64,000 nucleotides of DNA from a bacterium (GTDB taxonomy: Bacteria; Hinthialibacterota; Hinthialibacteria; Hinthialibacterales; Hinthialibacteraceae): positions 1,376,001 to 1,440,000 of the forward strand of contig CAXXMV010000008.1 in the NCBI GenBank assembly GCA_963662285.2. The letters run 5' to 3'. Of this stretch, positions 1 to 24,187 are shown piece after piece. The translations under genes were made by a program, and so were the position numbers. Position 1 is the first letter of the stretch, and each line of letters opens with the position of its first letter. Below the pieces are notes generated by a model. It saw only the letters and a program-made list of their open reading frames with translations, made no database searches and was not told the origin of the DNA.

Positions 1-2358
1 AGCAATGCCCAGGGCGACTGGAGCGCCCGCCAATACGCCGATCAATGTCAACATCACCGCTTCCCGCAGAATTTTCAATGCTACATCGCGGGATTGGGCG
101 CCCAGCGCCATACGGATGCCGATCTCATTCCTGCGCCGCGTCACGGTATAAGCCATCAAACCATACAGACCAATGCATGAAAGAAAGACGGCCAAAGCCG
201 CGAGCGATCCGCATAAGATGGAAAACAAACGCTCTATCATTATCGATTCATCGAGTTGCTGCTGCTGGGTCTTGATTTTTTCCAGTGGAATTGTTTTATC
301 CAATGCGGCCACGCTTTTGCGTACAGCGGGAACCAGCGACAAAGGCGGCAGGCTGGATCGCACCTCAAAATACACAGAAGAGACCGTTTTTTGCTGTTGG
401 GGAAAATACATTATGGGCGACAAATCATCCCTCAGGCTTTTATATGATGTGTTACCGCAGACGCCGACGATCCGGTAATTGGTTTCACCAATACTGAAAG
501 AAAGCCCCAAAGGAGATTCGTTCTCTAAAAACATTTTAGTGAACTGTTCATTGACTACCGCCACCTTGGAGCTGGACGCGCTATCTGAATCATCGAAACC
601 ACGGCCCAGCATAATGGGTAATTCCATAGTCGAAAAAAATGTATCGTTCACAACTAATTGACAGGCCTGCATGTGACTACCCGGTTCGGTCGGGCGGTCT
701 GGAAAAGAGAAGCCATTCTCAGATGACCAACCGCCAGCGAAAGAGAGGTCTGAATAGGCCACGGCGCGTACACCGGGAATGCCGCTGAGAGAACGACGGG
801 TATTTTCATAGAAATCCTTTTGCTCCTGATCGGTATATCCTGCCTGGGCGGCGTCCAATCGAAACAAGAGAATGTTTTCAGCATCAAAACCGGGATTGAG
901 GTTTTTGAGATTGGCGAATGATTGGATTAACAAGCCTGCACCCATCACCAACAAGACAGTCATTCCCACCTGCACCGCGACTAATACCTTGCCAATGCGC
1001 AGCCGGGGAGCTGCGTTAGCAGCGCGATCCTTTAATCCTTCGGCGGGATCAACCCGCGCCGCACGCATGGCCGGAATCAAACCAAACAGAAGAGTAGTCA
1101 AAACCGCCAGCCCCAGAGTAAAGATCAAGACATTACCATCCATACCGGCGTCGAATCGCAGATTGCTTTCATATTTCAACAGAAAATCCATCAGAAGTTC
1201 TTTGCACCATAAGGCGACTAGCAAACCCATTCCGGCGCCCATAAATGACAAAACCATACTTTCCGTCAGCGATTGCCGTATCAAACGCCAGCGTCCGGCG
1301 CCCAAAGCGGAGCGGATGGCCATTTCGTGATGCCGCGCTGCGCCGCGCACCAGCAGCAGACTGGCGAGATTGGCGCAGATAATGGCTACCACCAACCCCA
1401 CCAAGACCATCAGCGCCCAGAACGGTTCGGCCATGCGTTGACGCTGCATCAAAGGGCCGCGGCTGCCGTCCTCCAACCAGATGCCCGGTTGATCCATTGT
1501 GGTTGTAGAATCTTCGAGCACCCGCTCGAAAAGCACGGCCAGCGAGGCCTGGGCCTGGGCGTCACTGGCGCCGGGCGCCATGCGGGCCATGATCTGCACC
1601 CACCAGTGTTTGGATGATTCCAATGGATTGCCTGACGTAAGATGGGGTTGAGCTGCCATAGTGACGTAAAAATCTGTTGGATCGCCGGGTTGAGGCCCCA
1701 CGAAATCTTGCGATAATACGCCGATAACAGTAAAAATTTTGTTGTTGATTGAAACGACCTCTCCCAATACATTGGGATCAAGGGCGAAGTATCGTTCCCA
1801 AAAACGGTATGTAAGCACAGTAACCGGATCAGCGCCGATTTCACCCTCTTCAGCAGCAAAGGTGCGTCCCAAGGCCATGCGCGAACCATAGCCGTTGAAG
1901 AAATTTTCTGAGGTCATCAGGCCATCCACAGTTGAAGGCAAACCGCGGACCTGGACCGTCGCCCGTGAGATAGAAAAAAAGGCGAAGACATCCGAAAATC
2001 CTTTCCCCTTTTCGCGGAATTCACGGTAGGCGGTGTAGGGAAAAGAATTTGAATAAACCAATCCCTTCGAGAAATTACTCATACCGCTTCCAGTGTAATA
2101 GCTCAATTTGGGGCTGCGTCCCGTCCAGTTGATATTGCGTAATTCGTGGGGATTAGGAACCGGCAGCGAACGCAGCAACACGGCGTTGATCATACTGAAG
2201 ATGGTAGTATTTACGCCAATACCGATTGCCAATATCAACACGGCGACGATAGTGAAACCAGGCGTCTTAACAAGTTGCCGCAAGCCGTAGCGGACGTCCT
2301 GATATAAAGTGATGAGTGATAGGTGATTAGTTATAAATTTTGATTTGGTTGATTCCAT
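1..2358 (-). CDS. ADOP/MacB-FtsX family duplicated ABC permease (copy 4 of array; 3' end runs off window)
   Basis: Not in the ORF track, presumably because it has no stop inside the window. Manual translation from ATG at 2358 gives MESTKS...YQDVRYGLRQLVKTPGFTIVAVLILAIGIGVNTTIFS. The same frame at the window start reads IGLYGLMAYTVTRRRNEIGIRMALGA. Only the two ends were translated by hand. Confidence 0.92.
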   Translation of the reverse strand, partial: MESTKSKFITNHLSLITLYQDVRYGLRQLVKTPGFTIVAVLILAIGIGVNTTIFSMINAVLLRSLPVPNPHELRNINWTGRSPKLSYYTGSGMSNFSKGLVYSNSFPYTAYREFREKGKGFSDVFAFFSISRATVQVRGLPSTVDGLMTSENFFNGYGSRMALGRTFAAEEGEIGADPVTVLTYRFWERYFALDPNVLGEVVSINNKIFTVIGVLSQDFVGPQPGDPTDFYVTMAAQPHLTSGNPLESSKHWWVQIMARMAPGASDAQAQASLAVLFERVLEDSTTTMDQPGIWLEDGSRGPLMQRQRMAEPFWALMVLVGLVVAIICANLASLLLVRGAARHHEMAIRSALGAGRWRLIRQSLTESMVLSFMGAGMGLLVALWCKELLMDFLLKYESNLRFDAGMDGNVLIFTLGLAVLTTLLFGLIPAMRAARVDPAEGLKDRAANAAPRLRIGKVLVAVQVGMTVLLVMGAGLLIQSFANLKNLNPGFDAENILLFRLDAAQAGYTDQEQKDFYENTRRSLSGIPGVRAVAYSDLSFAGGWSSENGFSFPDRPTEPGSHMQACQLVVNDTFFSTMELPIMLGRGFDDSDSASSSKVAVVNEQFTKMFLENESPLGLSFSIGETNYRIVGVCGNTSYKSLRDDLSPIMYFPQQQKTVSSVYFEVRSSLPPLSLVPAVRKSVAALDKTIPLEKIKTQQQQLDESIMIERLFSILCGSLAALAVFLSCIGLYGLMAYTVTRRRNEIGIRMALGAQSRDVALKILREAVMLTLIGVLAGAPVALGIA

Positions 2359-2409
2359 TTTCTTTCTACCTTTATGTAGTTTTGATACTAAGAGTTCTAT
2401 GTAACAACC

Positions 2410-2466
2410 TTATTCACACCGCAGCGTAACCATGGGATCGACTTTGGTTGCTTTTCGCGCGGGGAG
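2410..2466 (-). repeat. 57-nt near-identical permease 3' end, copy A
   Basis: 2412-2466 is identical to 4833-4887 (55/55). There are 3 mismatches in 57 nt versus 7263-7319. Confidence 0.95.
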
Positions 2467-4803
2467 CCAGCAGGCCATTATTGCTACCACTCCGAGCACC
2501 AGGGTGACGCCTACTAGCGTGACCGGGTCAGTTGGTGTGACGCCGAACAGAAGATGCGTCAGGACACGGGTTAGAACCAGCGACCCCAATAGACCTATAC
2601 TCACACCCAACGCGATTAATTTCATTCCTTTCCCCAAAATGAGGAAAAGCACTTTGCCGTACTGCGCTCCAAGCGCCATACGGATGCCGATTTCCTTTGT
2701 GCGATGGGAGACCAATTGCGCCATCACTCCATAAAGGCCAATAGCCGCCAACAGCAGAGCCACTCCGGCAAAAATGCCAAGCAGTATAAAAATCAGGCGG
2801 CGGTCTGCAATGGAATCGGCTACGACCTGCTCCAGGGTGTGGATATTAGAAATGGGTTGATCGGGATCAAGTTTGAAGATTTCACTACGGATAGTCTCTA
2901 CCAGACTCAGCGGCGGCGCTTTGGTGCGCACTACCAGATTGCACTGAAAGGAACTGAAGGCTTGCGGCATATAAATACGCTCCATGCGGTCTCGGTCGAG
3001 GCCGCGATGCCGGACATCTCCGACCAGGCCGATAATTTCCCACGAATTACCCAGGAATTGCACACGCTGACCGATTGGATTGTCATGGGGAAAAACCTTG
3101 CTGGCGAGAGTCTGGTTGATGATTACTGCTCGCGGCGCACTGGTAGTATTGTCATGTTCTGTAAAAATCCGGCCTTTTAACAGCGGGATACCCATTGTCT
3201 GATAGTAATTACCGGAAACGAAATCGTAATCGGTGCTGATGTAGTAATCATCCTGATCAGGCTGGCTTTCAGCGCGGACTGAATTATCCGTGGCGCCGCT
3301 CATGGGCAGGGTGGTCACCGATCCAGCCGCCTCTACTCCAGGCAGAGATTCCACTCTTTGAATTATCTGTCTCAGAAAAACGGCGCGTTGTTCTCCATCA
3401 GGATATTTCTGATCATTGAGGGAAATACCCATAGCCAGCACACCCTCAGGATTGAATCCCGCCGGAACGGATTGCAATTGATACAGTGTTTTCATTAGCA
3501 GTCCGCTTCCCGCCAGCAGCACCAGCGCCAAGGCGATTTCCAGAACTATCAAGCCTCCACACAGGAAACCGGAACTGGACCGGGAAGTACGCGTCCCTTC
3601 TTTTAGGGTTTCGTTTAAGTTGGAGCGGACTAGTTGCCAGGCTGGCGCAAGGCCGAACAACAAACCTGTCAGGATGGATGCCAGCAGCGCGAAGCCAAGG
3701 ACATACGCATCAATGCTAATCTCTTCCACACGGGGAATGCTGGCCATTCTCCATTGCTTCAGCAGATCCACTCCCCAGATAGCCAGCAGTAATCCTAATC
3801 CTCCGCCGATCATTGAAAGCGTCAGGCTTTCGGTCAACAGTTGCCGGATCACACGCCATCGCGTACCGCCCAGAGCCACGCGCAGGGCGATTTCTTTGCG
3901 ACGCACAGTTGTCTTGGCCAGCAGAAGACTTGCGACGTTAGCGCAGGCAATCATTAGGACGAAGCCGACCGCGCTGAATAGAATCCAGAGTTGAGGACGG
4001 ATCTGACTGGTAAGTTCTTCATGCAAAGGGACGACCGCTACCCCCCACTTTTGCTTGTATTCGGGATAAAGTTCTTTAATTCGCTGCTTGATGGATTGCA
4101 TTTCCGAACGCGCCTGTTCGACCGTCACGCCTGGCTTAAGGCGTCCAATTACTCTAAGACGATTATCACGCCGTGAGTGGTGCCAGGATTCACTGCCAAA
4201 TACAAAAGGTACTATAACATCACACTCATTAGGGATTTTCGGTCTGGGAGGCAATACACCGATTACCGTGCAACTATCATTGCCTAAGCGGATTGAACTG
4301 CCAACTATATTCTCCGCACTGCCAAAGTACCGTTTCCAAAACCGGTGAGTCAGCATGACCACTTTTTCTTGCCCCGGTTTATCTTCATCGGGCAGGAATC
4401 CCCTGCCCTGCAACGGTTGTACGCGAAGGATGCGCAGGTAACTGGCCGAGACCTGAAGGACGCTTAGTCGTTCCGGTTGACCATTGCCTGTGATATTCAT
4501 ATTAACCCGGCGAACCGCCGAGATATTTTCCAGACTTCTATTCTGTTCTTTCCAATCATTAAATTCAGCGGCGGCGACAGAGTTTCGACCCCGCCCGTCT
4601 GAGGTTGGATCGCCCCAAAGTTGCACCAGCTGCCCCGGTTGATCGAATGGCAGGGCTTGTAACAATACGCCGTTGACAACGCTGAATATCGCCGTGACCG
4701 AGCCGACGCCAATTGCAAGAGTTAGCACGGCGGTAATCGTGAAACCAGGTGATTTAGAGAACATGCGGAAAGCAAATCGTATGTCTTGCCAAAGTGAATT
4801 CAT
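2410..4803 (-). CDS. ADOP/MacB-FtsX family duplicated ABC permease (copy 3)
   Basis: DIRFAFRMFSKSPGFT start, LIACANVASLLL..RRKEIALRVALG, second FtsX half EIGIRMALGA, C-terminus ARKATKVDPMVTLRCE. Confidence 0.95.
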   Translation of the reverse strand: MNSLWQDIRFAFRMFSKSPGFTITAVLTLAIGVGSVTAIFSVVNGVLLQALPFDQPGQLVQLWGDPTSDGRGRNSVAAAEFNDWKEQNRSLENISAVRRVNMNITGNGQPERLSVLQVSASYLRILRVQPLQGRGFLPDEDKPGQEKVVMLTHRFWKRYFGSAENIVGSSIRLGNDSCTVIGVLPPRPKIPNECDVIVPFVFGSESWHHSRRDNRLRVIGRLKPGVTVEQARSEMQSIKQRIKELYPEYKQKWGVAVVPLHEELTSQIRPQLWILFSAVGFVLMIACANVASLLLAKTTVRRKEIALRVALGGTRWRVIRQLLTESLTLSMIGGGLGLLLAIWGVDLLKQWRMASIPRVEEISIDAYVLGFALLASILTGLLFGLAPAWQLVRSNLNETLKEGTRTSRSSSGFLCGGLIVLEIALALVLLAGSGLLMKTLYQLQSVPAGFNPEGVLAMGISLNDQKYPDGEQRAVFLRQIIQRVESLPGVEAAGSVTTLPMSGATDNSVRAESQPDQDDYYISTDYDFVSGNYYQTMGIPLLKGRIFTEHDNTTSAPRAVIINQTLASKVFPHDNPIGQRVQFLGNSWEIIGLVGDVRHRGLDRDRMERIYMPQAFSSFQCNLVVRTKAPPLSLVETIRSEIFKLDPDQPISNIHTLEQVVADSIADRRLIFILLGIFAGVALLLAAIGLYGVMAQLVSHRTKEIGIRMALGAQYGKVLFLILGKGMKLIALGVSIGLLGSLVLTRVLTHLLFGVTPTDPVTLVGVTLVLGVVAIMACWLPARKATKVDPMVTLRCE

Positions 4804-4830
4804 GTTTTTCTTTCTATTGAGTTATATCTA

Positions 4831-4887
4831 TCATTCACACCGCAGCGTAACCATGGGATCGACTTTGGTTGCTTTTCGCGCGGGGAG
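4831..4887 (-). repeat. 57-nt near-identical permease 3' end, copy B
   Basis: tcattcacaccgcagcgtaaccatgggatcgactttggttgcttttcgcgcggggag. Confidence 0.95.
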
Positions 4888-7239
4888 ATAACAGGCCAAA
4901 ATCGAAATGCTGATCAGTAATAGAGAGATAAATAAGTAGGTTGATGGATCGGTTGGAGTAATTCCATAAAGAATGCTGCTCAAAAATCGTGTAACAGCAA
5001 ACGCAACGACCAGGCCAATCGCGATGCCAATCAGGATTAATTTAATTCCCTGCCAGATCACCATTGATACTACATCACCGAATTGGGCGCCGATGGCCAT
5101 TCTAATACCAATTTCATGCCCCCTTTGGCTTACGGAATATGACATAATTCCATAGATGCCAAGTGAAGAGAGAATCAGCGCAATAACCGACAACACCGAA
5201 ACAAGGATCATATTAAAGCGATTCATAACCATAGTATCGGCGATGAGTTTATCCATCGTACAGACATTTTCTATTGGCATATCAGGATCAATGGTCCAGA
5301 TCTGTTGCCGGATAGATGTTGAAAGCCGTTGAGGATTACCGCTGGTTCGGATAGCGAAACAGAGTGAACTATAAGGACGATGCAAGAATGGTACATACAT
5401 GGTTGGCCGGTCTTCACTGGTTAAACCGAAATGTTTGATGTTGTCTACAACGCCGACGATCTGGTATATTTTAGAATCCCAGTCAGGTATCTTGATGAAT
5501 TTGCCGATTGGATCGCCGATATTTTCATATCTCCGCGCCATGAATTCATTTATGATGATTCGATTGACGTCTGGATCTTCATCGTCGGAATTGAAATAGC
5601 GGCCTTTCAGCAAGGGTATCTTCATCGATTGAAAATACTCTGGATTGATATGCCGTATTTCGCCAAACTGAACATTGCCTTCACTCGACGCTTGCTGGTC
5701 TTGAATTTCAAAAGATAGAGATTTTCCCCATGTAAGAGGGAGAATGCTGGGTGCGGCTACGGATTCTACGCCGGGTAAGTTTTCAATTCCTTCCATGATG
5801 TTGCGATAAAATGTGAGTTTTTTAGAAACTGTATATTTGGAACCTGTAAGCGGCAGATGAAATGTCAACATATTACTGGAGTCGAATCCCGGATGTATGC
5901 TTTGCATTCTAATGAAACTGTTCACCATCAATCCTGCCGCGATAAGTACTACCAACGAGAAAGCAATTTCCACAACAACGAGATTACGAAGAATTCGCTG
6001 ACTCTTTGTACGTCCAACAGAACTACGGCCGCCTTCGTTTAAAACTGCCGTCAAGTTGGTTTTTGACATCTGCAGCGCTGGCGCCAGGCCAAACAGAAGG
6101 CTGGTTATGATGCAGACGGTGAAGGTGAATCCAAGCACAACATGATCAATGCCCACGCGGGTAACGTAAGGCCCCAATTCAGAAGGCAGAAGGATTTTTA
6201 ATAAATCAATGCCCCACAATGTAAGCAATAAACCACTCAACCCTCCCAGAAAAGAGAGAATAATGCTTTCCATCAGCATCTGGCGGATAACCCGCATACG
6301 GGTGGCGCCCAATGATGCACGGATGGTGATTTCCTTTTGTCGAACGCCCGCTTTGGCAAGCAGTAAACTGGCCACGATTGAACAGGCAAGTAAAAGGACA
6401 AAACCCACTGCTCCATGAAGCACAATGAAGGTTGGAGTCATCATCTGGATCAATCGTTCTGCTATAGGTTCGATAAAGATGCGGTAATTTTTATTGGTTT
6501 CGGGATACTCTTTGGCCAGGCTGGTGGAGATAATATCTAATTCAGCGCGGGCTTGCTCTAGCGAAACGCCTTCTTTGCGCATTCCAATTGCATCACAGTC
6601 ACGGGCGCCGCGATTTTTCTTTACGCGATCACTGGAAAGAGGAATCCATATTTTCGCTTGCCCATCAAAGAATCCTAAATCGGAGGGAAGGATGCCAATG
6701 ACAGTATAGGGGATATCATTGAGGAATATTTGCTGGTTTAGAATATCTTTTTTGCCGCCATACCGGTTATTCCAGTACCCATAACTCAGGACGACGACTT
6801 TATCTTTCCCCGGTTCCTCTTCCTCTTCGGTGAATTGGCGACCATACGCCATTGGCGATCCAATCGTATGGAAAATACCTGCTGTCGCAAGAAATGAAGC
6901 TATTCGTTCAGGTTCTCCATGACCAGTTACATTGAATCTGCGCACTGTAATTAAAGAGATTGATTCATACGATTGGCTTCGTTCTTTTAAATCTAAATAA
7001 TTGGGACCGGATATCCCTATATTATTCTTGTCTTTCCCTTCTCGAATCTCACAAATCCTCACCATGCGCTCGACATTGGGGAACGGCATGGGGCTGAGCA
7101 GTATTGAATTTACCATGGTGAAGATAGTTGAATTGGCGCCGATGCCGATAGTTAAGGCCAATATTGCCAGGCAAGTTATGCCTGGCGTTTTTAGCAGCAT
7201 CCTTATTCCGTACCTGATATCCTGCATAAGAATTGTCAT
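4831..7239 (-). CDS. ADOP/MacB-FtsX family duplicated ABC permease (copy 2)
   Basis: Same duplicated MacB_PCD+FtsX architecture: QDIRYGIRMLLKTPG ... EIGIRMAIGA ... ARKATKVDPMVTLRCE. Confidence 0.95.
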   Translation of the reverse strand: MTILMQDIRYGIRMLLKTPGITCLAILALTIGIGANSTIFTMVNSILLSPMPFPNVERMVRICEIREGKDKNNIGISGPNYLDLKERSQSYESISLITVRRFNVTGHGEPERIASFLATAGIFHTIGSPMAYGRQFTEEEEEPGKDKVVVLSYGYWNNRYGGKKDILNQQIFLNDIPYTVIGILPSDLGFFDGQAKIWIPLSSDRVKKNRGARDCDAIGMRKEGVSLEQARAELDIISTSLAKEYPETNKNYRIFIEPIAERLIQMMTPTFIVLHGAVGFVLLLACSIVASLLLAKAGVRQKEITIRASLGATRMRVIRQMLMESIILSFLGGLSGLLLTLWGIDLLKILLPSELGPYVTRVGIDHVVLGFTFTVCIITSLLFGLAPALQMSKTNLTAVLNEGGRSSVGRTKSQRILRNLVVVEIAFSLVVLIAAGLMVNSFIRMQSIHPGFDSSNMLTFHLPLTGSKYTVSKKLTFYRNIMEGIENLPGVESVAAPSILPLTWGKSLSFEIQDQQASSEGNVQFGEIRHINPEYFQSMKIPLLKGRYFNSDDEDPDVNRIIINEFMARRYENIGDPIGKFIKIPDWDSKIYQIVGVVDNIKHFGLTSEDRPTMYVPFLHRPYSSLCFAIRTSGNPQRLSTSIRQQIWTIDPDMPIENVCTMDKLIADTMVMNRFNMILVSVLSVIALILSSLGIYGIMSYSVSQRGHEIGIRMAIGAQFGDVVSMVIWQGIKLILIGIAIGLVVAFAVTRFLSSILYGITPTDPSTYLFISLLLISISILACYLPARKATKVDPMVTLRCE

Positions 7240-7262
7240 TTTATTACTCCATTAGAGATACC

Positions 7263-7319
7263 TTATTCACACCGCAATGTAACCATCGGATCGACTTTGG
7301 TTGCTTTTCGCGCGGGGAG
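7263..7319 (-). repeat. 57-nt near-identical permease 3' end, copy C
   Basis: ttattcacaccgcaatgtaaccatcggatcgactttggttgcttttcgcgcggggag; its last 32 nt are identical in all three copies. Confidence 0.95.
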
Positions 7320-9707
7320 ATAGCAGGCCACTAGAGCCACGGCGATTAATAGGATTGAGACGCTGATGTATGTTATGGGATCAAATCCGCTTACGCCGAA
7401 TAGTTGGGAGGAGATAAAACGGTGCAACGCCAGCGATCCAAGTAATCCCACGAATACTCCGATTCCGGCGAGGGATAATCCTTTTTTTAGAACAAGCCAC
7501 AGCACATCGGAAACCTTCGCGCCCATGGCCATGCGAATGCCGATTTCGTGGGATCGTTGCGCTACAGAATATGAAATGACGCCATAGATGCCCAGCGCGG
7601 CCAGGAATAAGGCGGTTAGAGCGAATGTTCCCAGTAGTGTAGCAAAGAAACGCCGTCCATTGGAACGATCTATGTTAATATCCATCAGAGTTTGAATACC
7701 GGCCACAGGGAGTTCATTATCCATCAAGGCAATTTCATGCCGGATAGGATTCACAATATTCATAGGCTCGCCCTTGGTTCGAACAACCAGGGTAAATTCT
7801 CGCCCGTTCCTTTGCTCGAAAGGCAAATAAACGGATTCGCGTGAATTTTGGTCAACTCCGTAATGCTTGATATGCCGAACCACTCCTACTACTTCCCGCC
7901 AGGAATCATCATCACTAGGCGGCCCGCCTTGCGCTAAGCGCTTGCCAACCGCACTTTGATCGGGCCACCACTTTTGCGCGAAACGTTCATCAACAATTAC
8001 GACCTGTTTTGAATCTTCAACATCATGTTGATTAAAATAACGGCCTTCGATCAGACGGATGCCCATAGAATTAAAATGATCAGCACTGATAACATTGAAT
8101 TCCGCATGAAGGTTTTGCCCCGGTTCGGGGATGGGGGCGTGTTCCACATAATAGGTAGATTGCCATTGCCCCAGGATATTGGATGACAGGCTGGCATGTT
8201 GAACGCCGGGAATCGCGTTTACCCTTTGCAGAAGGCTACGATAGAACTCTTTGGTTTGAGCGTCTTCGGGGTATTTATGTTCGGTTAGGGATAAATCCAT
8301 TTTGACGACGTTGCGTGGATTATATCCGGGATCGGCGTTTAGATAATTGACGAAGCTGCGCATCATTAATCCCGCTCCCACCAGCAACATGAGGGCGAGA
8401 GAGATTTCGGAGATAATTAGTAGTTCCCGGTAGCGTTTACGTTTCATGCCGCCAGTAGATGAGCGGCTGGTTTCTTTCATTGCATCATTCACATTAATGC
8501 GGGATGATTGCCATGCGGGAACCATGCTTAAGAGTAAGCCGGCGCCTAATGTGATGCCGCAAGAAAACAGTAATACAGTAGTATCGATACGGAAAAATTC
8601 GTCGGGATTCATGAGTGATTGATTGGGGATAATGCGTATAATCAAATCGCTGGCCCACAAAGAGAACAATAGTCCTGCAAGCCCACCAGCACAAACCAAG
8701 ATCATGCCTTCGCACAAAATCTGCCGGATGATTTGCATCCGCCCCGCTCCCAGAGCGCTGCGCACGGCGAATTCCTGGTTCCTGGCCGAAGCCCGGATCA
8801 TAAGAAGGTTACCGATGTTGGCGCTGACGATCAGCAGAACAAAAAATACCGCGCCCATTAAAAGCATTAAGCCCGGTTTTATATTTCGGGTGATTCTCTC
8901 TTGGTAATTAGTCAGTTGAACCGTGCAACCGCTATTGTTATCAGGATATTCTTCTTGTAATTGAAGAGCGATAGAATCCATATCCGTTTGGGCTTGAGCC
9001 AGTGAAATTCCCGCCTTGAGTTTGCCTATCGAACCACTGCCGGCATGATTATTTCGATTCAAAAACCATTCCTCCCGCTTCAATAATTCCATTGGAGTCC
9101 AAACATCATTGCTGGATGAACGGAATGGAGGAAAAATAAAATCAACTGGCATAACGCCGATAACCGTATAAGGCAAACCATCGAATAGTAGTTTTTGCCC
9201 CAGCGCGTCTTTGCTGCCCTCGAACTGTTCCTGCCAATACCCATAACTGAGAACAACAGTCCGTTCTGCATCCAAACTTATGTCGCTATCTTCAAAGGCT
9301 CTTCCCGCTATTGGTTTAACGCCGAGAATGGGGAATAAATTCGCTGTAACCTGTTGGGATGAAACAACCTCCGCCCGGTCAACGCCAGTACGGTTATACC
9401 GGGCGCCCCGGTAACAGGCCATTTCTTCAAATGATTTATTGCGATCCCGCCAATCCTGGTAATTAGCGTAAGCGGTCGACATCCCCCCGAATGTTGCATG
9501 TCTCTCCTGAAGATCAACCAATCGCTCAGAAGCTTCATAAGGCAGGGGACGCAGAAAAAAAGCATTGATGGCGGTAAAGATAGTAGTATTTGCGCCGATG
9601 CCGATGCCTAGAGTCAGGATGGCGATGAGGGTATAGCATGGCGATTTAATCAGCGCCCGGAATCCATAGCGTATATCTTTAAATAGAGATGTCATTATAT
9701 TTACCAT
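7263..9707 (-). CDS. ADOP/MacB-FtsX family duplicated ABC permease (copy 1)
   Basis: KDIRYGFRALIKSP ... EFAVRSALGAG ... EIGIRMAMGA ... ARKATKVDPMVTLRCE. Confidence 0.95.
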   Translation of the reverse strand: MVNIMTSLFKDIRYGFRALIKSPCYTLIAILTLGIGIGANTTIFTAINAFFLRPLPYEASERLVDLQERHATFGGMSTAYANYQDWRDRNKSFEEMACYRGARYNRTGVDRAEVVSSQQVTANLFPILGVKPIAGRAFEDSDISLDAERTVVLSYGYWQEQFEGSKDALGQKLLFDGLPYTVIGVMPVDFIFPPFRSSSNDVWTPMELLKREEWFLNRNNHAGSGSIGKLKAGISLAQAQTDMDSIALQLQEEYPDNNSGCTVQLTNYQERITRNIKPGLMLLMGAVFFVLLIVSANIGNLLMIRASARNQEFAVRSALGAGRMQIIRQILCEGMILVCAGGLAGLLFSLWASDLIIRIIPNQSLMNPDEFFRIDTTVLLFSCGITLGAGLLLSMVPAWQSSRINVNDAMKETSRSSTGGMKRKRYRELLIISEISLALMLLVGAGLMMRSFVNYLNADPGYNPRNVVKMDLSLTEHKYPEDAQTKEFYRSLLQRVNAIPGVQHASLSSNILGQWQSTYYVEHAPIPEPGQNLHAEFNVISADHFNSMGIRLIEGRYFNQHDVEDSKQVVIVDERFAQKWWPDQSAVGKRLAQGGPPSDDDSWREVVGVVRHIKHYGVDQNSRESVYLPFEQRNGREFTLVVRTKGEPMNIVNPIRHEIALMDNELPVAGIQTLMDINIDRSNGRRFFATLLGTFALTALFLAALGIYGVISYSVAQRSHEIGIRMAMGAKVSDVLWLVLKKGLSLAGIGVFVGLLGSLALHRFISSQLFGVSGFDPITYISVSILLIAVALVACYLPARKATKVDPMVTLRCE

Positions 9708-9756
9708 TTGAAGTGAGTATTTTTTTGTTACGGATTAATCTATAAATCGTGCGCTA

Positions 9757-10497
9757 TCAGGAAAGCGCTTCGACGGTATCTATAGGTATTTGACTAGGAG
9801 ACTTACGTAAGACGGTATCTTCCACAATCTGTCCATCGAACAATTGAATGTTGCGGTCGGCGTGTTTGGCGTAACGTGGATCATGAGTCACCATACAGAT
9901 GGTCGCGCCCTCACGGTGCAGATCAGATAGTAATTCCATGACCGCTTCGCCGTTATGTGAATCGAGATTACCCGTCGGTTCATCGGCCAGAAGGATTGAT
10001 GGGTTGCCGCATACCGCCCGCGCTACGGCGACGCGCTGTTGCTGACCGCCGGATAGTTGAGCGGGATAATGCTTCATGCGATGCGACATGCCCACCTTCT
10101 CCAAGGCTTCCACCGTCTTGGTTTTGCGCTCGCTGGATGACATGCCCCGGTAGGTCAGAGGCAGTTCAACATTTTCATAGACGGTCAAGTCGCCGATCAG
10201 GTTAAAGCTCTGGAAGATGAAACCGATTTCACGGTTTCTGATACGCGCGCGATTCGCTAGAGTAAGGTTAGAAACGTCCTCTTCATTCAGTAGATATTCA
10301 CCTTCTGAAGAGGTATCCAGCAATCCCATAATGGCCAGAAGGGTGGATTTACCGCAGCCGGAAGGTCCGGCGATGGAAAGGTAGTCGCCTTTTTCAATGG
10401 TGAGATGAATCCCGGTTAGAGCGTGAGTTTCGACCTCTTCAGTAATGAAGACTTTCCTGAGATTGGTCATTTTTATAAGGCTTTGTTTTTCGGGCAT
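9757..10497 (-). CDS. ABC transporter ATP-binding protein (MacB/LolD-like)
   Basis: Walker A GPSGCGKST, GFIFQSFNL Q-loop, signature LSGGQQQRVAVARA, Walker B ILLADEPTGNLD, H-loop VTHD. Confidence 0.97.
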   Translation of the reverse strand: MPEKQSLIKMTNLRKVFITEEVETHALTGIHLTIEKGDYLSIAGPSGCGKSTLLAIMGLLDTSSEGEYLLNEEDVSNLTLANRARIRNREIGFIFQSFNLIGDLTVYENVELPLTYRGMSSSERKTKTVEALEKVGMSHRMKHYPAQLSGGQQQRVAVARAVCGNPSILLADEPTGNLDSHNGEAVMELLSDLHREGATICMVTHDPRYAKHADRNIQLFDGQIVEDTVLRKSPSQIPIDTVEALS

Positions 10498-10518
10498 TGC
10501 GGTCTCCTTGGTGGTTCA

Positions 10519-10561
10519 ATCAAGGGCTGAGCGCAATGCGCTCTTGCCCTTGGCACCCAGT
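10519..10561. repeat. REP-like palindrome (GGGTGCCAAGGGC...GCCCTTGAT family)
   Basis: Its reverse complement matches 12209-12251 at 40/43 nt; internal hairpin present. Confidence 0.85.
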
Positions 10562-10592
10562 AATATCAATAACTTAAGTTATTGGAATGTAT

Positions 10593-10627
10593 CCCTCACC
10601 CTAGCCCTCTCCCAGCGGGAGAGGGGA
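10593..10627. repeat. CCCTCACCC...CCCTCTCCC-GGGAGAGGG intergenic palindromic repeat
   Basis: ccctcaccctagccctctcccagcgggagagggga. Related hairpins lie at 12129-12174 and 47083-47108. Confidence 0.7.
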
Positions 10628-10679
10628 CTTGGTTTATCGACAAAACTTTGGCGCCAGACATAATGAGATGAACGGAGTA

Positions 10680-11933
10680 TTAACGTAGATTAATACGATC
10701 CACTTCGTCCCACTCGCTCATATCAGAAAGAATGATTTTGTCGCCTTCATCCAATCCATCCAGAACCTCGACGGTATTCACCGAACTGCGCCCCAGTTTT
10801 ACTCTGACGCGGTTGGCGTTGGCGCCATCTTCGTTCAGTTTAAATATGCCGAGAGTAACATTGGGCTGAGCAAATACAGGTCGACCGACATAAAGAATAT
10901 TGGTTAACTTTTCAATCTGGATATTACCATCCAGCGTCTGATCGGGGCGCGCCCCGTCCGGCAGAGGATCATCAAGGATAATGTCAACTTCAACGGTTCC
11001 CTCTCTGACCGATGGATCGATGCGGGAAACTTTTCCATTTAAAACCGTGCTGCGTATATCGATCTTGGAGGATAAACCAATCTTGACTTCCCTGGCCTGG
11101 TTCTGATCAATACGCAAGACCGCTTTCAATAATGAAGGATCGCTGACTTTGGCCAGATTGGTGATCGAACTGACCTGATGGCCTTCTTCGACCAGCAGTT
11201 GTTCCAGCACTCCATCGAACCCGGCTATCACCATCAACGACTGAATTTGTCTTTCTTTCAGACCCAGCGACGCTTGGGCCTGTTCGATCTGGGCTTGTAA
11301 AACATCCAATTGCGTTTGGGAGAACTGGCTTTGGATGTTAACCCGTCTTTTTTCGATTTCCTTTAGTTTTTCAAGTTCTTTGACGCGAACTAACGATACT
11401 TGAAGTTGTAGATCGGAGATTAATCCATCTTTGGCCAGTTGAGTATCCGACTTGGATTTCAACCGCGCTTCGACCAGATCAGCATCTACCCGCGCAGCTG
11501 CACTTTCGAGGTTCAGTAGGGTGTTTTCCAGTTCAACCTTTTTAGCCGCTAACTGCGATTCCGCTGATTTTACTCTTAACTTGGCTTCTTCGAGGGCTAA
11601 TTCCAGTTCGGGATTACTTAGTTCCAGAATTATGGTGTCTTTAGTGACTGAGGTTCCGGGACGAACCAGAATCTTCTCCACCCGGCCCGCGGTTTCCGGC
11701 GCCACCCAGCGGATATCAATCGGAACCAAACTGCCCGGCCCCCGTACTTCGCGGATCATGTCGCCGCGTTTGACTTGCTCGACCCACAAAATCGCCCGGT
11801 CTACAGTAGGCGAAGCCGGTTCGAGATCTGATAGAGCAACCGTTATTCCACCGATTACCATTAGGGATATAACGATGTAAATAATGCGTTTAATCAATTT
11901 TCTTTTTTTTGATGATGGTCTTGGGATGTCCAT
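10680..11933 (-). CDS. Membrane-fusion / periplasmic adaptor protein (HlyD/MacA family)
   Basis: N-terminal TM anchor, lipoyl half-motifs (GRVEKILVRPG; IAGFDGVLEQLLVEEG), coiled-coil hairpin, C-terminal VKLGRSSVNTVEVLDGLDEGD. RBS GAGGTG upstream. Confidence 0.93.
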   Translation of the reverse strand: MDIPRPSSKKRKLIKRIIYIVISLMVIGGITVALSDLEPASPTVDRAILWVEQVKRGDMIREVRGPGSLVPIDIRWVAPETAGRVEKILVRPGTSVTKDTIILELSNPELELALEEAKLRVKSAESQLAAKKVELENTLLNLESAAARVDADLVEARLKSKSDTQLAKDGLISDLQLQVSLVRVKELEKLKEIEKRRVNIQSQFSQTQLDVLQAQIEQAQASLGLKERQIQSLMVIAGFDGVLEQLLVEEGHQVSSITNLAKVSDPSLLKAVLRIDQNQAREVKIGLSSKIDIRSTVLNGKVSRIDPSVREGTVEVDIILDDPLPDGARPDQTLDGNIQIEKLTNILYVGRPVFAQPNVTLGIFKLNEDGANANRVRVKLGRSSVNTVEVLDGLDEGDKIILSDMSEWDEVDRINLR

Positions 11934-11963
11934 ATAAATACACCTCTTTTACCGTACTCTTAC

Positions 11964-11979
11964 TCAAGTAATGTGCCAA
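11964..11979 (-). promoter_or_regulatory. Putative sigma54 (-24/-12) promoter of MFP-ATPase-permease operon
   Basis: Minus strand TTGGCACATTACTTGA: GG-N10 spacing is correct but -12 is GA instead of GC. It lies 30 nt upstream of the MFP start and next to a sigma54 activator gene. Confidence 0.65.
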
Positions 11980-11985
11980 TTGATG

Positions 11986-11998
11986 TAAATAATTGATA
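11986..11998 (-). promoter_or_regulatory. Putative IHF site
   Basis: TATCAATTATTTA matches WATCAANNNNTTR and lies between the enhancer and the sigma54 promoter. Confidence 0.55.
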
Positions 11999-12054
11999 TC
12001 CATATACTTGAACATCTTAAAGCGATTCAAAGAAAACAAACATGTAATTATTAA

Positions 12055-12092
12055 TGTCCGTCAGCGTACGGTTGGTTGTCCGAAAACGGACA
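12055..12092. promoter_or_regulatory. Tandem enhancer (UAS) palindromes for the NtrC-family activator
   Basis: Perfect TGTCCG-aaaa-CGGACA (12077-12092) and degenerate TGTCCG-tcag-CGTACG (12055-12070), offset by 22 bp. Confidence 0.7.
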
Positions 12093-12208
12093 TTAGCCCT
12101 GATTTTTAATCCAAGTTTTTTGCTAACAACCCCCTCTTGTGTGAATTCTCCCCCAAACTTGGGGGAGAGGGGTTTTAGAGATATAACCAGTTATATTGTT
12201 TTGACTTG

Positions 12209-12251
12209 ACTGGGTGCCAAGGGCAAGACCGCAATGCGGTCAGCCCTTGAT
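12209..12251. repeat. REP-like palindrome (GGGTGCCAAGGGC family)
   Basis: actgggtgccaagggcaagaccgcaatgcggtcagcccttgat; inverted copy of 10519-10561. Confidence 0.85.
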
Positions 12252-12305
12252 CAAACCACTTAAGATAGGATGAAAATACCTTAACTTAATGATATTGCCT
12301 TTCAT

Positions 12306-12390
12306 GGGCGCCCGATATATCAGGCGCCCTGAGAAATTGAAAAAGCTAAAGGGGATTTGTAATCGGGTAACCACAAGGGATTACCCCTAC
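12306..12390. repeat. Two further REP-like hairpins (one GTAG-footed)
   Basis: GGGCGCCcgatatatcaGGCGCCC (12306-12329) and minus-strand GTAG-GGGTAATCCCTTGTGGTTACCC (12365-12390). Confidence 0.65.
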
Positions 12391-12443
12391 GGTTATTTGG
12401 GAGAGGTTAGGTTAGGTTTGATATCAACCACATTTTTTTAGGG

Positions 12444-13829
12444 TTAAATAGGCAGATAAAGTTTAGCGATGCATCCCTGACAATCAGTGCGGTTTTCGAG
12501 CATGAGGTTTCCGCCATGCGCTTCAGCAATCTGGCGGCTGATCATAAGACCCAAACCTGAGCCTTTCGGTTTGGTTGTAAAGAAGGGCACGAATAAGTTA
12601 TCAGGATTTGAAATCCCGACGCCTTGATCTTCGACGAAGATTACCAGATAACGATTGGGTTTGGTTTGAATAGACCAGCCGACTCGAACATCGCCCCCGG
12701 TTTCCTCAACCGCTTCGATAGCATTTTTTATCAGATTTATTAGAACCTGATCCAATTGAGCGCGGTCTGCTTTGATTATTATCGAAGAGCCGGTTATTAG
12801 TGAAACGCATGGATTTGGTTCAAGGTTTACAATAGATTGTATCCACTCGGCTACATTGATCGGCTGCAAGTCGGGCTTAGGCAGTTTGGTCAGCTGGGCG
12901 TAAGAAGCCATAAAGCGATTCAAACCCTCGGATCGACCTGTAATGACATTCAAACCCTGGGCGACGTCATCTTCCCAATCATCAGGCCTTGGGTCGCGCG
13001 ATAATAAATTTCGCAGACTATCGGCTAATGAATGAATAGGCGCCAGGGAATTATTGATCTCATGACGAAGCACCTGCACCAGGCGCTTCCAGGCCTGACG
13101 TTCTTCAGAACGTAATGCGCGGGTTAAATCCGACAGCACCACCAGTTGATGCGATTGCCCCTGAAGCCGGAATTCACCCCGGCGCAGTTCCCATCTTCCA
13201 ATACCCCCCGGTAAGGAGAGTTCCTGGATGCGAGGCGACTCGCCTTCCAGTACTCCGCCAAGACCCAGTTCATCGGCGATTCTGCCCTGAAGCGCTGAAT
13301 CAGGCGTATCGAGCAGTTGCTGCGCCCGGTTATTAAATAAGCGCAGTTTTTTCCGGTTATCAAAAGCCAGGATAGCTACATCGATTTCATCCATTACTTT
13401 CCGTAGAAGAGTAGTCGATTCCATAGCGCTGATGCGTTGCGCGCGCAGCGTATCGCCCAAGGCGTTAATTTCTCTGGCGACTTCCTGCAAGACATCATCT
13501 CCGGCGCCGCGTACTGAACGCATCGAATAATCGCCTTCATGATAAGCCGCCAATAGACTGGATATGGTTCGCATAGTGCTAACGATTCGTTCTCTCACCG
13601 CAAATGAGAAGCCAAACCAGAACAGCATAACGAACAAAGTAACGGTAAGTTGCAGCTTAAAACTATAATCTCCTGACCATATTAAGAACAACGCGATAAA
13701 CGAACCGGGAAATCCGGCCAAAAGGGTGGATAATAGAATCCGGGTTTCATAATACAAAAAATGCCTGGCGGAGGGGATGCGCTTGGAATTTGGATTGCCT
13801 GATGGAGAACGGGGGACGTTATATATCAT
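12444..13829 (-). CDS. Sensor histidine kinase (2 TM, HAMP/PAS-like, HisKA, HATPase)
   Basis: H-box LRHEINNSLAPI, N-box QVLINLIKNAIEA, G-boxes DQGVG and PFFTTKPKGSGLGL. Overlaps the regulator by 11 nt. Confidence 0.95.
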   Translation of the reverse strand: MIYNVPRSPSGNPNSKRIPSARHFLYYETRILLSTLLAGFPGSFIALFLIWSGDYSFKLQLTVTLFVMLFWFGFSFAVRERIVSTMRTISSLLAAYHEGDYSMRSVRGAGDDVLQEVAREINALGDTLRAQRISAMESTTLLRKVMDEIDVAILAFDNRKKLRLFNNRAQQLLDTPDSALQGRIADELGLGGVLEGESPRIQELSLPGGIGRWELRRGEFRLQGQSHQLVVLSDLTRALRSEERQAWKRLVQVLRHEINNSLAPIHSLADSLRNLLSRDPRPDDWEDDVAQGLNVITGRSEGLNRFMASYAQLTKLPKPDLQPINVAEWIQSIVNLEPNPCVSLITGSSIIIKADRAQLDQVLINLIKNAIEAVEETGGDVRVGWSIQTKPNRYLVIFVEDQGVGISNPDNLFVPFFTTKPKGSGLGLMISRQIAEAHGGNLMLENRTDCQGCIAKLYLPI

Positions 13830-15186
13830 ATTTTTCCATGCGGCGATACATTGCCGGGCGGCTCATTCCCAGCGCTTTGGCTGCTTTGCTTACATTGCCT
13901 TCGCTGCGGGCCATGGCTTTTTTTATCAGAAAGCACTCAACTTCTTCCAAACTCATATCCATCAAGCCGAGCGATTCCTGAGTTGCGCTTTGCAAACCCA
14001 GGTCTGGAGCGTGAATCGCATCCTTTTTAGCCATCAGGACAGCGCGTTCGATGGTATGATCTAATTCCCGGATGTTGCCCGGCCAGCTGTAATTCAGCAG
14101 TTTTTCCATGGCTTCTCTTTGGATATGCAAAACATCCTTGCGATATTGCCGGGCGTAACGTTTTAGAAAATGAGTGGCCAAAAGAGGAATATCTTCAAGA
14201 CGTTCGCGAAGAGGCGGCAGAAAGATTTCCACCGTATTGAGCCGGTATAATAAATCCTGCCGGAACCGCCCCTGGTTTAATTCCACAGAGATATCTGCGT
14301 TAGTGGCGGACAGAATGCGTACGTTGGTCTTGCGCGTTTTAGATGAACCGATCCGTTCAAATTCTCCGGTTTCCAAAACGCGCAGCAGTTTCGGTTGTTC
14401 CTTAAAAGGTACATCAGCGATTTCATCTAAAAAGAGCGTTCCCTGGTTGGCTAATTCAAAGCGACCCACGCGATCAGTCTTGGCGTCGGTAAATGCGCCT
14501 TTGACGTGCCCGAAGAGTTCGCTGGCAAAAACGCCTTCGGATAATCCACCCACATTTACGGTAATTAATGGTTCATTGCACTGCTTTGATGCGGCGTGTA
14601 ATGCACGGGCGACGACGCCTTTGCCAGTTCCATTCTCGCCCAGAATCAATACGTTGGCGTTTGATGGACCAACCCGCTCAATCAATTCCAAAACGGGTTG
14701 CATAGCTGCCGATTTGGCGATGAGGTGAGAGTCTTTTTTCTCACGCAGCAACTGGTTTTCCGCCCGCAGCCGTTTTCCATCACGCAATGCCTTACTGAGT
14801 GCAACCTGCGTTTTAAGAATAGTGAGCAGACGGGTATTATCCCAGGGTTTTTGAATAAAATCCCGGGCGCCCCGTTTCATGGCTTTGACCACAAGTTCAA
14901 TACTGGCCCATCCGGTGATCACCACTACCGGCAGGGTTTCATCCATTTCGCGCAGTTTGGCCAGCAGATTAAGACCTTCTTCTCCCGAAGTAGTGTCACG
15001 GGTGTAATTCATATCCATCAAGACTACGTCGAAATCCCGCTCTGCAACAGATTTAATAATACCCGACGGCGACTGAGCTTCGTGAATATCGAATCCTTCA
15101 CTTTTAAGCATCAATCGAAGAGCGGTCAACACATCGGGCTGATCATCTGCAATTAGTATTTGGAATTGGTTGGATTCAGAAATCAT
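13819..15186 (-). CDS. Sigma54-dependent response regulator (NtrC family)
   Basis: Receiver domain (IADD, LMDMN, KP), AAA+ GENGTGK, SELFGHVKGAFTDA (GAFTGA-like), WPGNIREL, C-terminal Fis HTH. Confidence 0.97.
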   Translation of the reverse strand: MISESNQFQILIADDQPDVLTALRLMLKSEGFDIHEAQSPSGIIKSVAERDFDVVLMDMNYTRDTTSGEEGLNLLAKLREMDETLPVVVITGWASIELVVKAMKRGARDFIQKPWDNTRLLTILKTQVALSKALRDGKRLRAENQLLREKKDSHLIAKSAAMQPVLELIERVGPSNANVLILGENGTGKGVVARALHAASKQCNEPLITVNVGGLSEGVFASELFGHVKGAFTDAKTDRVGRFELANQGTLFLDEIADVPFKEQPKLLRVLETGEFERIGSSKTRKTNVRILSATNADISVELNQGRFRQDLLYRLNTVEIFLPPLRERLEDIPLLATHFLKRYARQYRKDVLHIQREAMEKLLNYSWPGNIRELDHTIERAVLMAKKDAIHAPDLGLQSATQESLGLMDMSLEEVECFLIKKAMARSEGNVSKAAKALGMSRPAMYRRMEKYDI

Positions 15187-17390: not shown

Positions 17391-19454
17391 CTAAAAACCG
17401 GTTCGCTTAAACACTCTCAGTAATGTTTGTTCAGCAATAAACAACAATGCCGGGCGTCCATGGGGGCATACATTGCGGCGCGGGATTTTCTGTAATCCCT
17501 GAATAATGCCTTCCATCTCGTGGATGCTGAGTTCATCTCCGAATTTCACCGCCGCCCGACACGCCAGGGTATGCAGCGCTTTATCTTTGTAATCTTCAGA
17601 ACTGCCTTCATGCCGCACTTCACCCAGAAAATCCTTGATAAACTGTTCGGATTCTTCGATGGTTAACGATGAGGGGATGGATCGAACCACAAAAGTGCTT
17701 CCACCGAACGGCTCGATTATAAAACCAAGTGATTTTAAGAGGTCGGTTATATCTTCAACCAGTCCCACTTCATCCGGCGCGAAATCGAGCGTTATGGGAA
17801 ACAGTAATGTCTGGCTGGCCAGTGGAGCGTTTTTTGATTGATTATGAAATTTCTCAAATAACAGCCGTTCATGCGCTGCGTGTTGATCAATGATGAACAG
17901 GCCGTCTTTACCTTCGGCCATAATGAAATTGTTCATCAGCTGACCCAGAACCACCAACTCACCAGCATCCTCCAGCGAGCGGGCGTCGAAAAGCATATCG
18001 GGCTTTTTGTCGATTTCAATCAAATCGCGGATAGCGCCTAACGTAACTCCTTCCGATCTAACTGGTTTAACATCCTCCGTCGGCGCCGCTGGCGCTTCTA
18101 CCTCGTCAGGTGAATCAGGCTGTTGCATTGCGGTTTGCTCTACCACAGTAGATGATGAGATTACCTCAATGCCGCCGGGCTTAACCTCTTGAACCTCAGG
18201 TTCAGAATTTATGCCTTGGTCTTGGGCAGTGGGGGAACTCTCGTTTGGTATATCAGGTTCCCGGTTTAACTGTTTGATAACGGATGGCTTAAACGGCTCT
18301 GGCGCCGAATGAGGTTCGTGATAAGTCTGTGGTTCAGCATCATTAGTCGACGGCTGCTGAGGCGCGGCGTAAACCGGCGCTTTTTTATCCATCTCTTTAA
18401 GTAGTTGTTCAGTTTCTATAAGTGGATCATCTTCTTGTTTGACCTGATTAACTACTTCTTTTTTAACTTGCGGTTGTACATCCCACGCCTGACGAATCGA
18501 ACCGTATACTGCTGAAAAAATAGCGTCTTCTCTGGCAAATTTAATCTCCTGTTTGGTTGGATGAACATTGACGTCAATCTCCGCCGGATCAATTTCCAGA
18601 TATAAAAATACTACCGGATATCGTCCCCCATGAATCAGGTTGCGGTATCCATTCATCAGGGCGCGGTGCAGCAAGCGGTCTTTGATATAGCGGTTGTTGA
18701 CGAAAAAGAAAACATGTTGAGCGCCATTGCGCGTAAGAGTCGGCCGGGAAATAAAACCTGACAGAGAAATGATCGGATTATCGAGACTTACCGGAATCAT
18801 TTCATCCAGCACTTTTTTACTGAATAACTGTTGAATACGTTCCGCCCGGCTGGAGACACTGGGCAAATCAATCGAACGGCGGCCATTATGCGAAAAAGTG
18901 AAATGAATGTTTTCGTGCGCCAACCCATTCCAGGTTACCGCCGACAAAACATGATTCATCTCTGTGGCCGGTTTCTTAAGAAATTTACGCCGGGCTGGAG
19001 TATTAAAAAATAAATCGCTGATAGTGATGGAAGTTCCAATCCCCGTTCCGATATTTTGCGCTTCTTTTTCGGCGCCTCCTTCACTAATTATCTGCGTACC
19101 CCATTCACTGTCGGCTGGCCGGGTTTTCAAGTCGAGCCGGGATACAGAACTGATCGCGGCCAGCGCTTCGCCCCGGAATCCTTTGGTCAGAATGGCGTCT
19201 AAATCACTGGCATTATGTATTTTACTGGTTGCATGACGCTTGAGGCATATAGCCGCATCTTCCCGCGTCATACCACAGCCATTATCCGTAATGCGGATGG
19301 ATTTCAATCCGCCCTGTTCGATATCCACATCAATACGGGTAGCGCCCGCATCAACCGCGTTATCAATAAGTTCGCGTACTATCGAGGCGGGACGCTCAAC
19401 AACTTCGCCAGCGGCGATTCGATTGGCAATTTCTGGTGGAAGTATATGTATCAT
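17391..19454 (-). CDS. mutL: DNA mismatch repair endonuclease MutL
   Basis: RIAAGEVVERPAS, HATSKI, GFRGEALAAI, DVNVHPTK, endonuclease motif DQHAAHER, ACR, CPHGRP. Confidence 0.98.
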   Translation of the reverse strand: MIHILPPEIANRIAAGEVVERPASIVRELIDNAVDAGATRIDVDIEQGGLKSIRITDNGCGMTREDAAICLKRHATSKIHNASDLDAILTKGFRGEALAAISSVSRLDLKTRPADSEWGTQIISEGGAEKEAQNIGTGIGTSITISDLFFNTPARRKFLKKPATEMNHVLSAVTWNGLAHENIHFTFSHNGRRSIDLPSVSSRAERIQQLFSKKVLDEMIPVSLDNPIISLSGFISRPTLTRNGAQHVFFFVNNRYIKDRLLHRALMNGYRNLIHGGRYPVVFLYLEIDPAEIDVNVHPTKQEIKFAREDAIFSAVYGSIRQAWDVQPQVKKEVVNQVKQEDDPLIETEQLLKEMDKKAPVYAAPQQPSTNDAEPQTYHEPHSAPEPFKPSVIKQLNREPDIPNESSPTAQDQGINSEPEVQEVKPGGIEVISSSTVVEQTAMQQPDSPDEVEAPAAPTEDVKPVRSEGVTLGAIRDLIEIDKKPDMLFDARSLEDAGELVVLGQLMNNFIMAEGKDGLFIIDQHAAHERLLFEKFHNQSKNAPLASQTLLFPITLDFAPDEVGLVEDITDLLKSLGFIIEPFGGSTFVVRSIPSSLTIEESEQFIKDFLGEVRHEGSSEDYKDKALHTLACRAAVKFGDELSIHEMEGIIQGLQKIPRRNVCPHGRPALLFIAEQTLLRVFKRTGF

Positions 19455-24000: not shown

Positions 24001-24187
24001 ATTCCCAACATGTTCCTTAAAATCTACAGATGATTCACATTGGTACAATTATGCCTCATACCAACTAAGCGGGCAATGTGACCATATTTATGTTTAGACC
24101 GAAAGCAAAAAAAACCGTATACAGCAAGGGTGAAAATCCTATGCTGTATACGGTGTATGGTAATTTTATGTTGCTATTCGCCTTGGG

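Follow-up and report, generated by a model that had tools for sequence, protein, structure and literature searches.

Short-tract gene conversion as the probable source of a near-identical 3′ block in three genes of a tandem ADOP permease array

The window analyzed here, the whole 64,000-nt stretch G000:C8:1376001-1440000 (contig C8 of a genome, G000, whose 7.29-Mb assembly is 92.5% complete), begins inside a tandem array of ADOP permease genes. When the genome around the window is included, the array consists of seven such genes, named A through G, all on the minus strand, four of which reach into the window (Table 1). Genes A, B, and C end in nearly identical blocks of about 55 bp although the rest of their sequences is very divergent, and this shared 3′ block is probably the product of short-tract ectopic gene conversion, a form of concerted evolution, between neighboring paralogs. 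The array is thus best read as having undergone an ordinary kind of recombination, with no new gene-capture system involved.

A, B, and C have one and the same peptide encoded in their final 18 codons, and the longest exact nucleotide runs are 55 nt between B and C, 35 nt between A and B, and 32 nt between A and C. Elsewhere the three genes are 38% identical as proteins and about 49% identical as DNA. Among informative codons, 17 of 17 are identical between B and C in the tail and 99 of 277 outside it (binomial P = 2.5e-8), more than chance would give (an earlier note on this DNA had argued that protein constraint alone does not explain the identity); the A-B and A-C pairs each have 14 of 17 identical tail codons (P = 2e-4 and 8e-5, respectively). 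When an 18-codon window is slid along the genes, the tail ranks first for all three pairs, and the next best window has a P value of at least 6e-3. The earlier note's internal control, the EIGIRMA motif, does differ at 5 of 7 codons between C and B, and the comparably low divergence at other conserved motifs that would speak against its argument was not seen, as no other window is an outlier in these pairs. The near-identity that the note had described at the 3′ ends is thus real, but the block is present only in A, B, and C. A search of the assembly for the 55-mer with as many as 10 mismatches allowed gives three sites, all of them in these genes, where it forms three direct repeats in the same orientation spaced 2.4 kb apart. 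The note had also proposed looking for the block in unlinked ADOP genes; there are none, since 7 of the 7 genes over the TIGR03434 cut-off in the whole assembly sit in the array. By their tails the seven permeases fall into three groups of adjacent genes, A-B-C, D-E, and F-G; D and E have in common an exact run of 23 nt that begins 60 nt from the 3′ end, and D has the D/E type of tail. The rare ending ..LRSE is common to F and G.

The tail of C is foreign to its own lineage. Among the 44 nearest homologs of C in a large protein collection (52-74% identity), the tail has PARK in none, PARR in 42, TLR in one, and ALR in 43. The C tail itself reads PARK...TLR, yet the Cys-Trp of the C lineage is kept just ahead of the tract. 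The PARKA...TLRCE type of tail is typical of the B clade and of the 90% ortholog of A (the clades are those of a midpoint-rooted FastTree tree of 22 gene bodies with the last 20 residues removed, whose support values were not inspected). A tail that is foreign to the C lineage points to C as the recipient and to A or B as the donor. Gene B shows the same discordance between body and tail: its body is 85% identical to that of F, but only 13 of 18 tail residues are alike in the two, while all 18 are like those of A and C, although the bodies are only 38% identical.

The only relative of the same genus available for comparison is a metagenome contig of 11966 nt (L101, ∼12 kb; about 86% nucleotide identity) that carries its array at 1319-7326. 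The A ortholog on this contig matches at 42/54 positions in the tail and is 85.9% identical in the body, and the G ortholog matches at 44/54 positions and is 83.8% identical in the body. In contrast, the tails of A, B, and C in the present genome match one another at 51-54 of 54 positions. Paralogous tails that are more alike than orthologous tails are the signature of concerted evolution, and because the orthologous tails have diverged like the bodies, a special constraint on the tail nucleotides is ruled out.

Genes B and F have a second stretch of this kind (Table 1), a 232-nt exact run against a background of 85.5% identity that occurs twice in the genome, 9.9 kb apart. The assembly was checked with independent k-mer contigs from two runs of one sample (rare junctions cannot show in these), and among them a 232-nt contig of about double depth spans exactly 5486-5717. 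Conversion is visibly active in this array. In pairs without conversion, the longest exact runs lie in the tail region for D-E (the 23 nt mentioned above), B-E, and C-E (18 nt each), and the fourth long run, 20 nt between C and D, lies at the EIGIRMA motif.

In the proposed mechanism, a tract of about 54-57 nt that starts at the Leu codon of ..LPARKATKVDPMVTLRCE and ends with the last sense codon would have been copied between adjacent paralogs of one operon, with C as the recipient and A or B as the donor. The B-C event would be the most recent (0 differences), and the A copy would since have drifted at three synonymous sites. Recombination or a template switch may seed at the C-terminal motif, and the tract would lie at the tail because this motif is among the stretches in which the paralogs have their longest exact nucleotide runs. 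The route could be RecA-dependent conversion or replication template switching, and the direction of conversion with respect to A and B is equally putative. The change of peptide would be tolerated as all seven permeases may dock on the same one or two ATPases. The tail peptide aligns with MacB up to residue 645-646 of 648, and a review describes a C-terminal minor coupling helix of MacB that contacts the nucleotide-binding domain (PMC5985334). A common tail would then be tolerated by the protein because the peptide corresponds to the C-terminal end of MacB, where this helix touches the ATPase. With a second ATPase gene beyond G, the operon encodes two ATPases for seven permeases; presumably the seven share these two and hence tolerate a common tail. 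The three 55-bp direct repeats also offer homologous recombination a substrate for deleting or duplicating whole genes, which would be a consequence of the conversion and not a demonstrated function.

Patches like this one are found in other ADOP arrays. The survey covered 279 ADOP-type open reading frames (ORFs) in 87 loci from other genomes (7 of the loci with none and 16 with one), plus the seven genes here. Tail codon identity of at least 0.9 is found in 5 of 205 adjacent pairs, 1 of 308 non-adjacent pairs of the same array, and 2 of 39,556 between-genome pairs, and not one of these 39,556 has 100% identical codons in the tail. Two independent cases, in which the gene bodies are 51-56% identical, are locus L021 (16/17 codons, P = 3e-5) and locus L054 (14/15 codons, P = 7.5e-5); locus L095 is a weaker case (P 1e-3), and the B-C pair is the strongest in the survey. 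A window at P < 1e-4 is present in 15 of the 515 same-array pairs. Of the 15 windows, four are terminal (the two here and those of L021 and L054), five are at the conserved motif at the extreme 5′ end, three are 17-21 codons from the end, two are in the EIGIRMA region, and one is elsewhere. Since tracts also occur at the 5′ and EIGIRMA motifs, they appear to follow conserved motifs generally rather than one special site. A further pair was noticed at locus L013 (G013:C32), where the first two permeases belong to the deepest two clades and have bodies that are 33% identical, and both end in an unusual tail, ..AANVDPMIALRCE, in which an exact run of 23 nt and 12/16 identical codons (P = 3.5e-3) may reflect the same kind of event in a different genus.

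Several observations weigh against conversion as the source of the block. The sequences flanking the tract are only about 49% identical and thus poorly suited to classical RecA conversion, which leaves the molecular route putative. On its 3′ side the tract ends at the stop codon, and its copies are direct repeats around whole genes, as a site-based system would also give; edges lie at tails both for the duplicated unit of B and F and for the presence or absence of B and C relative to L101. The DNA of the block forms a weak imperfect hairpin (z to -1.9; 9 of 200 shuffles fold as well). On sequence grounds the donor may be either A or B. In the survey, about 2 of the 15 windows are expected by chance, by an estimate of ∼23,000 effective windows (515 pairs with ∼45 independent windows each), and a trio of genes at locus L082 with exact tails of 48-51 nt was rejected as unconvincing, since its body codons are already 0.70-0.73 identical (codon bias) and the tails reach only P = 0.006-0.03. 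Finally, the evidence comes from one sample and one close relative.

The conserved tails might instead be homology anchors, possibly kept alike, through which ordinary recombination adds, deletes, or moves units of one spacer and one permease with no dedicated recombinase. The codons of the coupling helix would then be a portable anchor: with nearly the same 50-60 nt at the end of every ADOP gene, and with neighbors kept identical there by conversion, ordinary homologous recombination could duplicate, delete, or move permease units or acquire them from foreign DNA, in frame each time. It seems rather unlikely that this is the case here, but some features of the arrays are what it would give. 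The tails lie 2.4 kb from one another as direct repeats of 55 bp. The homology of B and F takes in the upstream spacer (A to B compared with E to F, 18 of 23-24 positions) and excludes the downstream spacer, so that the copied unit runs from tail to tail. In L101 the A ortholog is followed by pieces of D (nt 67-504) and E (148-664), then by the terminal 26 nt of F, and then by the G ortholog; the orthologs of A and G are intact, the remnants of D and E are out of frame, and B and C are absent. The missing DNA is exactly two tail-bounded units, absent precisely between the A tail and the D-type spacer, such that the A ortholog stands directly before that spacer and the D remnant. Array content and order also vary among the genera of the family. 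On the other hand, surviving gains and losses of whole genes must break near gene ends, so survivorship could give the same edges; tail-bounded edges are also expected from ordinary homologous recombination together with the survival of intact genes. Two further rearrangements in L101, deletions that broke within gene bodies (D:504/E:148 and E:664/F:2387), left pseudogene remnants, four of the seven tails are not homogenized, and no rearranged junction is present among the contigs of the sample, which cannot show rare ones. The comparison of array order with a relative that the earlier note had called for thus gave a divided answer, the absence of B and C between tails agreeing with its proposal of whole-gene turnover through the block and the other breakpoints disagreeing. 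If the tails do act as homology anchors, this would be a recombinase-free cassette system that varies the permease set of one pump, and tails that guide whole-gene turnover would explain the high and variable copy numbers of the family.

Selection on the mRNA or DNA itself might also keep the block identical, for instance if it served in processing, as the target of a small RNA, or in coupling to the next cistron. Synonymous sites are identical, and the identity runs as far as the stop codon, shortly before the next gene starts, as such an element might require. However, it is very unlikely that the block is one, as it is present in only 3 of the 7 cistrons, the spacers that follow it differ in length and sequence, the RNA of tail plus spacer does not fold unusually (z of +0.4, -0.3, and +0.6), a search of 1-13000 against Rfam gave no match at E ≤ 1, and the orthologous tails in L101 have diverged at least as fast as the bodies (42-44/54 compared with 84-86%).

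The earlier note had favored a recombination or gene-conversion anchor in an integron-like array with its site embedded in the coding end. Its gene-conversion half agrees with the findings above, and its capture and shuffling half does not. In a general form of the latter idea, the block would be an att-type site for a recombinase encoded elsewhere, and B and C would be captured cassettes of an integron-like or integrative-element-like kind. Three direct repeats in the same orientation do bracket promoterless genes behind a single upstream regulatory region, the genes differ in G+C content (GC), and B and C are absent from L101. Nevertheless, such a site is extremely unlikely. Neither the other four permeases nor any other part of the genome has the block, and its 32-nt invariant core has no exact match in a metagenome contig collection. 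In the whole genome no match to the TIGR02249 integron integrase model exceeds the cut-off, and the nearest matches to the tyrosine (PF00589) and serine (PF00239) recombinase families are about 123 kb and 95 kb away, respectively. Pfam scans found no recombinase domain in genes to ∼14 kb beyond the array ends (DDE transposase families were not searched) and no match in eight antisense ORFs inside the array. Neither a GTTRRRY nor an RYYYAAC core is present on either strand of the three tails with ∼12 nt of flanks, the DNA folds are not significant (z of -0.7 to -1.9), and the comparable tracts of other arrays are at other conserved motifs.

An assembly or polishing artefact, or the assembly collapse that the earlier note had considered, is almost certainly not the source of the identical tails: the genome is apparently metagenomic and of low depth (4-9× word depth), but reads are longer than the 55-nt block, and with flanks of ∼49% identity no read can be assigned to the wrong copy; the independent k-mer contigs recover every copy with its unique flanks at 0 differences; the A copy carries three natural-looking synonymous changes; and unrelated assemblies show the same pattern. 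The k-mer contigs end inside the tail block, as expected for a real repeat of at least 31 nt, and among the pieces listed none covers 7235-7292. One joint in the contigs that appeared to lead back from 7242 to 2410 carries the spacer between E and F; it is a cross-match to the E/F junction and was rejected. Joints in which a side was shorter than 30 nt were disregarded.

Concerted evolution by ectopic conversion is familiar from the duplicated tuf genes of enterobacteria and from rRNA operons. Conversion in gene families of Mycobacterium tuberculosis is reportedly the subject of PMC13061034 and PMC12046097. The array resembles such bacterial paralogs in that paralogs are more alike than orthologs, synonymous sites are identical, tract edges are sharp, and donor and recipient lie close together on one replicon. 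It differs from classical conversion, which acts between near-identical genes, in that the tract is only ∼55 nt long, the genes are 38% (protein) and 49% (DNA) identical with no flanking homology, and the patch recurs at the same conserved motif in arrays of other genomes. Like integron arrays (with IntI, attI, and attC), it has promoterless genes in one orientation, short repeats, one upstream control region, and a content that varies between relatives; unlike them, it has no IntI, no attC cores or significant fold, a repeat that is the coding end of the preceding gene and is present in 3 of 7 genes, and genes that are all of one family. Some integrative elements use a gene 3′ end as their insertion site and bring a duplicate of it with them, as at the att sites of tRNA genes. 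Identical direct repeats of a gene 3′ end bracket DNA here as well, but no integrase or element genes lie between them, and each interval is one spacer plus one permease of the resident family. The encoded pump resembles MacAB-TolC, a type VII ABC transporter, in its MacB-type periplasmic core, FtsX domain, adaptor, MacB/LolD-like ATPase, and TolC-like protein, and in the alignment of its permeases' C-terminal peptide with the MacB C-terminus. Unlike MacB, the permeases are internally duplicated (ADOP, ∼800 aa) and have no fused ATPase, and seven of them accompany two separate ATPase genes. A limited literature search on ADOP permeases and MacB gene conversion found no prior report of this tail pattern. 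Synonymous identity between very divergent tandem genes can, by the conversion reading, arise from a ∼55-nt patch that is seeded at a conserved motif and needs no dedicated machinery, which argues for caution before such blocks are taken for new recombination sites. The same patch in several other arrays, together with the whole-gene differences between close relatives, suggests that the multi-permease pumps of soil bacteria evolve by frequent local recombination.

All seven permeases score 822-970 bits with the TIGR03434 (ADOP) model, whose cut-off is 622.3 bits, while 0 of 14 control genomes exceed it, and each of the four in the window has two PF12704 (MacB_PCD) and two PF02687 (FtsX) stretches. 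The earlier note had described four permeases; their tandem arrangement and the spacing of 23-51 nt were correct (gaps of 23 nt for A-B, 27 nt for B-C, and 51 nt for C-D; 13-51 nt over the whole array), and the count was too low. Also correct was its statement that the copies differ in base composition, with gene GC of 0.44-0.54 across the array in a genome of GC 0.44. Pairwise protein identity among the seven is 30-43% except for B and F. The ORF of permease A is 7263-9707, and the ATG at 9695 was taken as its start. The MacB-type permeases, the membrane-fusion adaptor, the ABC ATPase, and the TolC-like outer-membrane protein are all encoded in one gene string. In a wide scan, the relatives that carry names were mostly metagenome-assembled genomes of Blastocatellia and Pyrinomonadaceae, with 37-44% identity.

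Table 1. Coordinates of the array, its tail blocks, and neighboring genes. Plain numbers are window positions; C8 marks positions on the contig.
Feature	Position	Strand	Remarks
Tail block of C (last 18 codons)	2412-2466	-	55/55 identical to B block; probable conversion recipient
Tail block of B	4833-4887	-	Differs from F tail at 5/18 residues
Tail block of A	7265-7319	-	3 synonymous differences from B and C blocks
Second, independent conversion tract	B 5486-5717 = F C8:1371585-1371816	-	232-nt exact identity
ADOP permease A	7263-9695	-	810 aa; first permease of array; GC 0.48
ADOP permease B	4831-7239	-	802 aa; GC 0.44; 85% identical to off-window F
ADOP permease C	2410-4803	-	797 aa; GC 0.52
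ADOP permease D	1-2358, runs off window	-	838 aa in total; last 158 nt lie before window
ADOP permease E	C8:1373366-1375828	-	Wholly off-window
ADOP permease F	C8:1370930-1373341	-	Wholly off-window
ADOP permease G	C8:1368485-1370905	-	Wholly off-window
ABC ATPase, MacB/LolD/DarD type	9757-10497	-	
Membrane-fusion adaptor (HlyD/RND_mfp)	10680-11933	-	
Histidine kinase	12444-13829	-	Upstream of operon
Sigma-54-dependent response regulator	13819-15186	-	Upstream of operon
Second MacB-type ABC ATPase (257 aa) and TolC-like outer-membrane protein (566 aa)	G000:C8:1366056-1368472 (= L100:10056-12472)	-	After G

A scan for promoters and terminators inside the array gave nothing above shuffled sequences, and the sigma-54 consensus has 20 matches in the window compared with 29.8 expected. 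One sigma-54-like -24/-12 match with two mismatches (11963-11978, minus strand) lies 30 nt upstream of the adaptor gene and below the gene for the sigma-54-dependent regulator, but it is not evidence of a promoter. The spacers ahead of B, F, and G are alike, with an ATCT..TGGAG core that includes a ribosome-binding site (window 7240-7262; C8:1370905-1370930 and 1373341-1373366). The spacer between the ATPase and adaptor genes (10498-10679) contains a short dispersed repeat with a GC-rich hairpin at 10605-10625; a BLAST search with this spacer gives 291 hits in the genome, and contig depth there is 173-290 compared with about 5-20 nearby. Homologs of MutL and RecQ are encoded at 17391-19454 and 21682-24048 (minus strand), 8-14 kb from the array; they probably serve housekeeping roles, and their proximity is probably coincidental.

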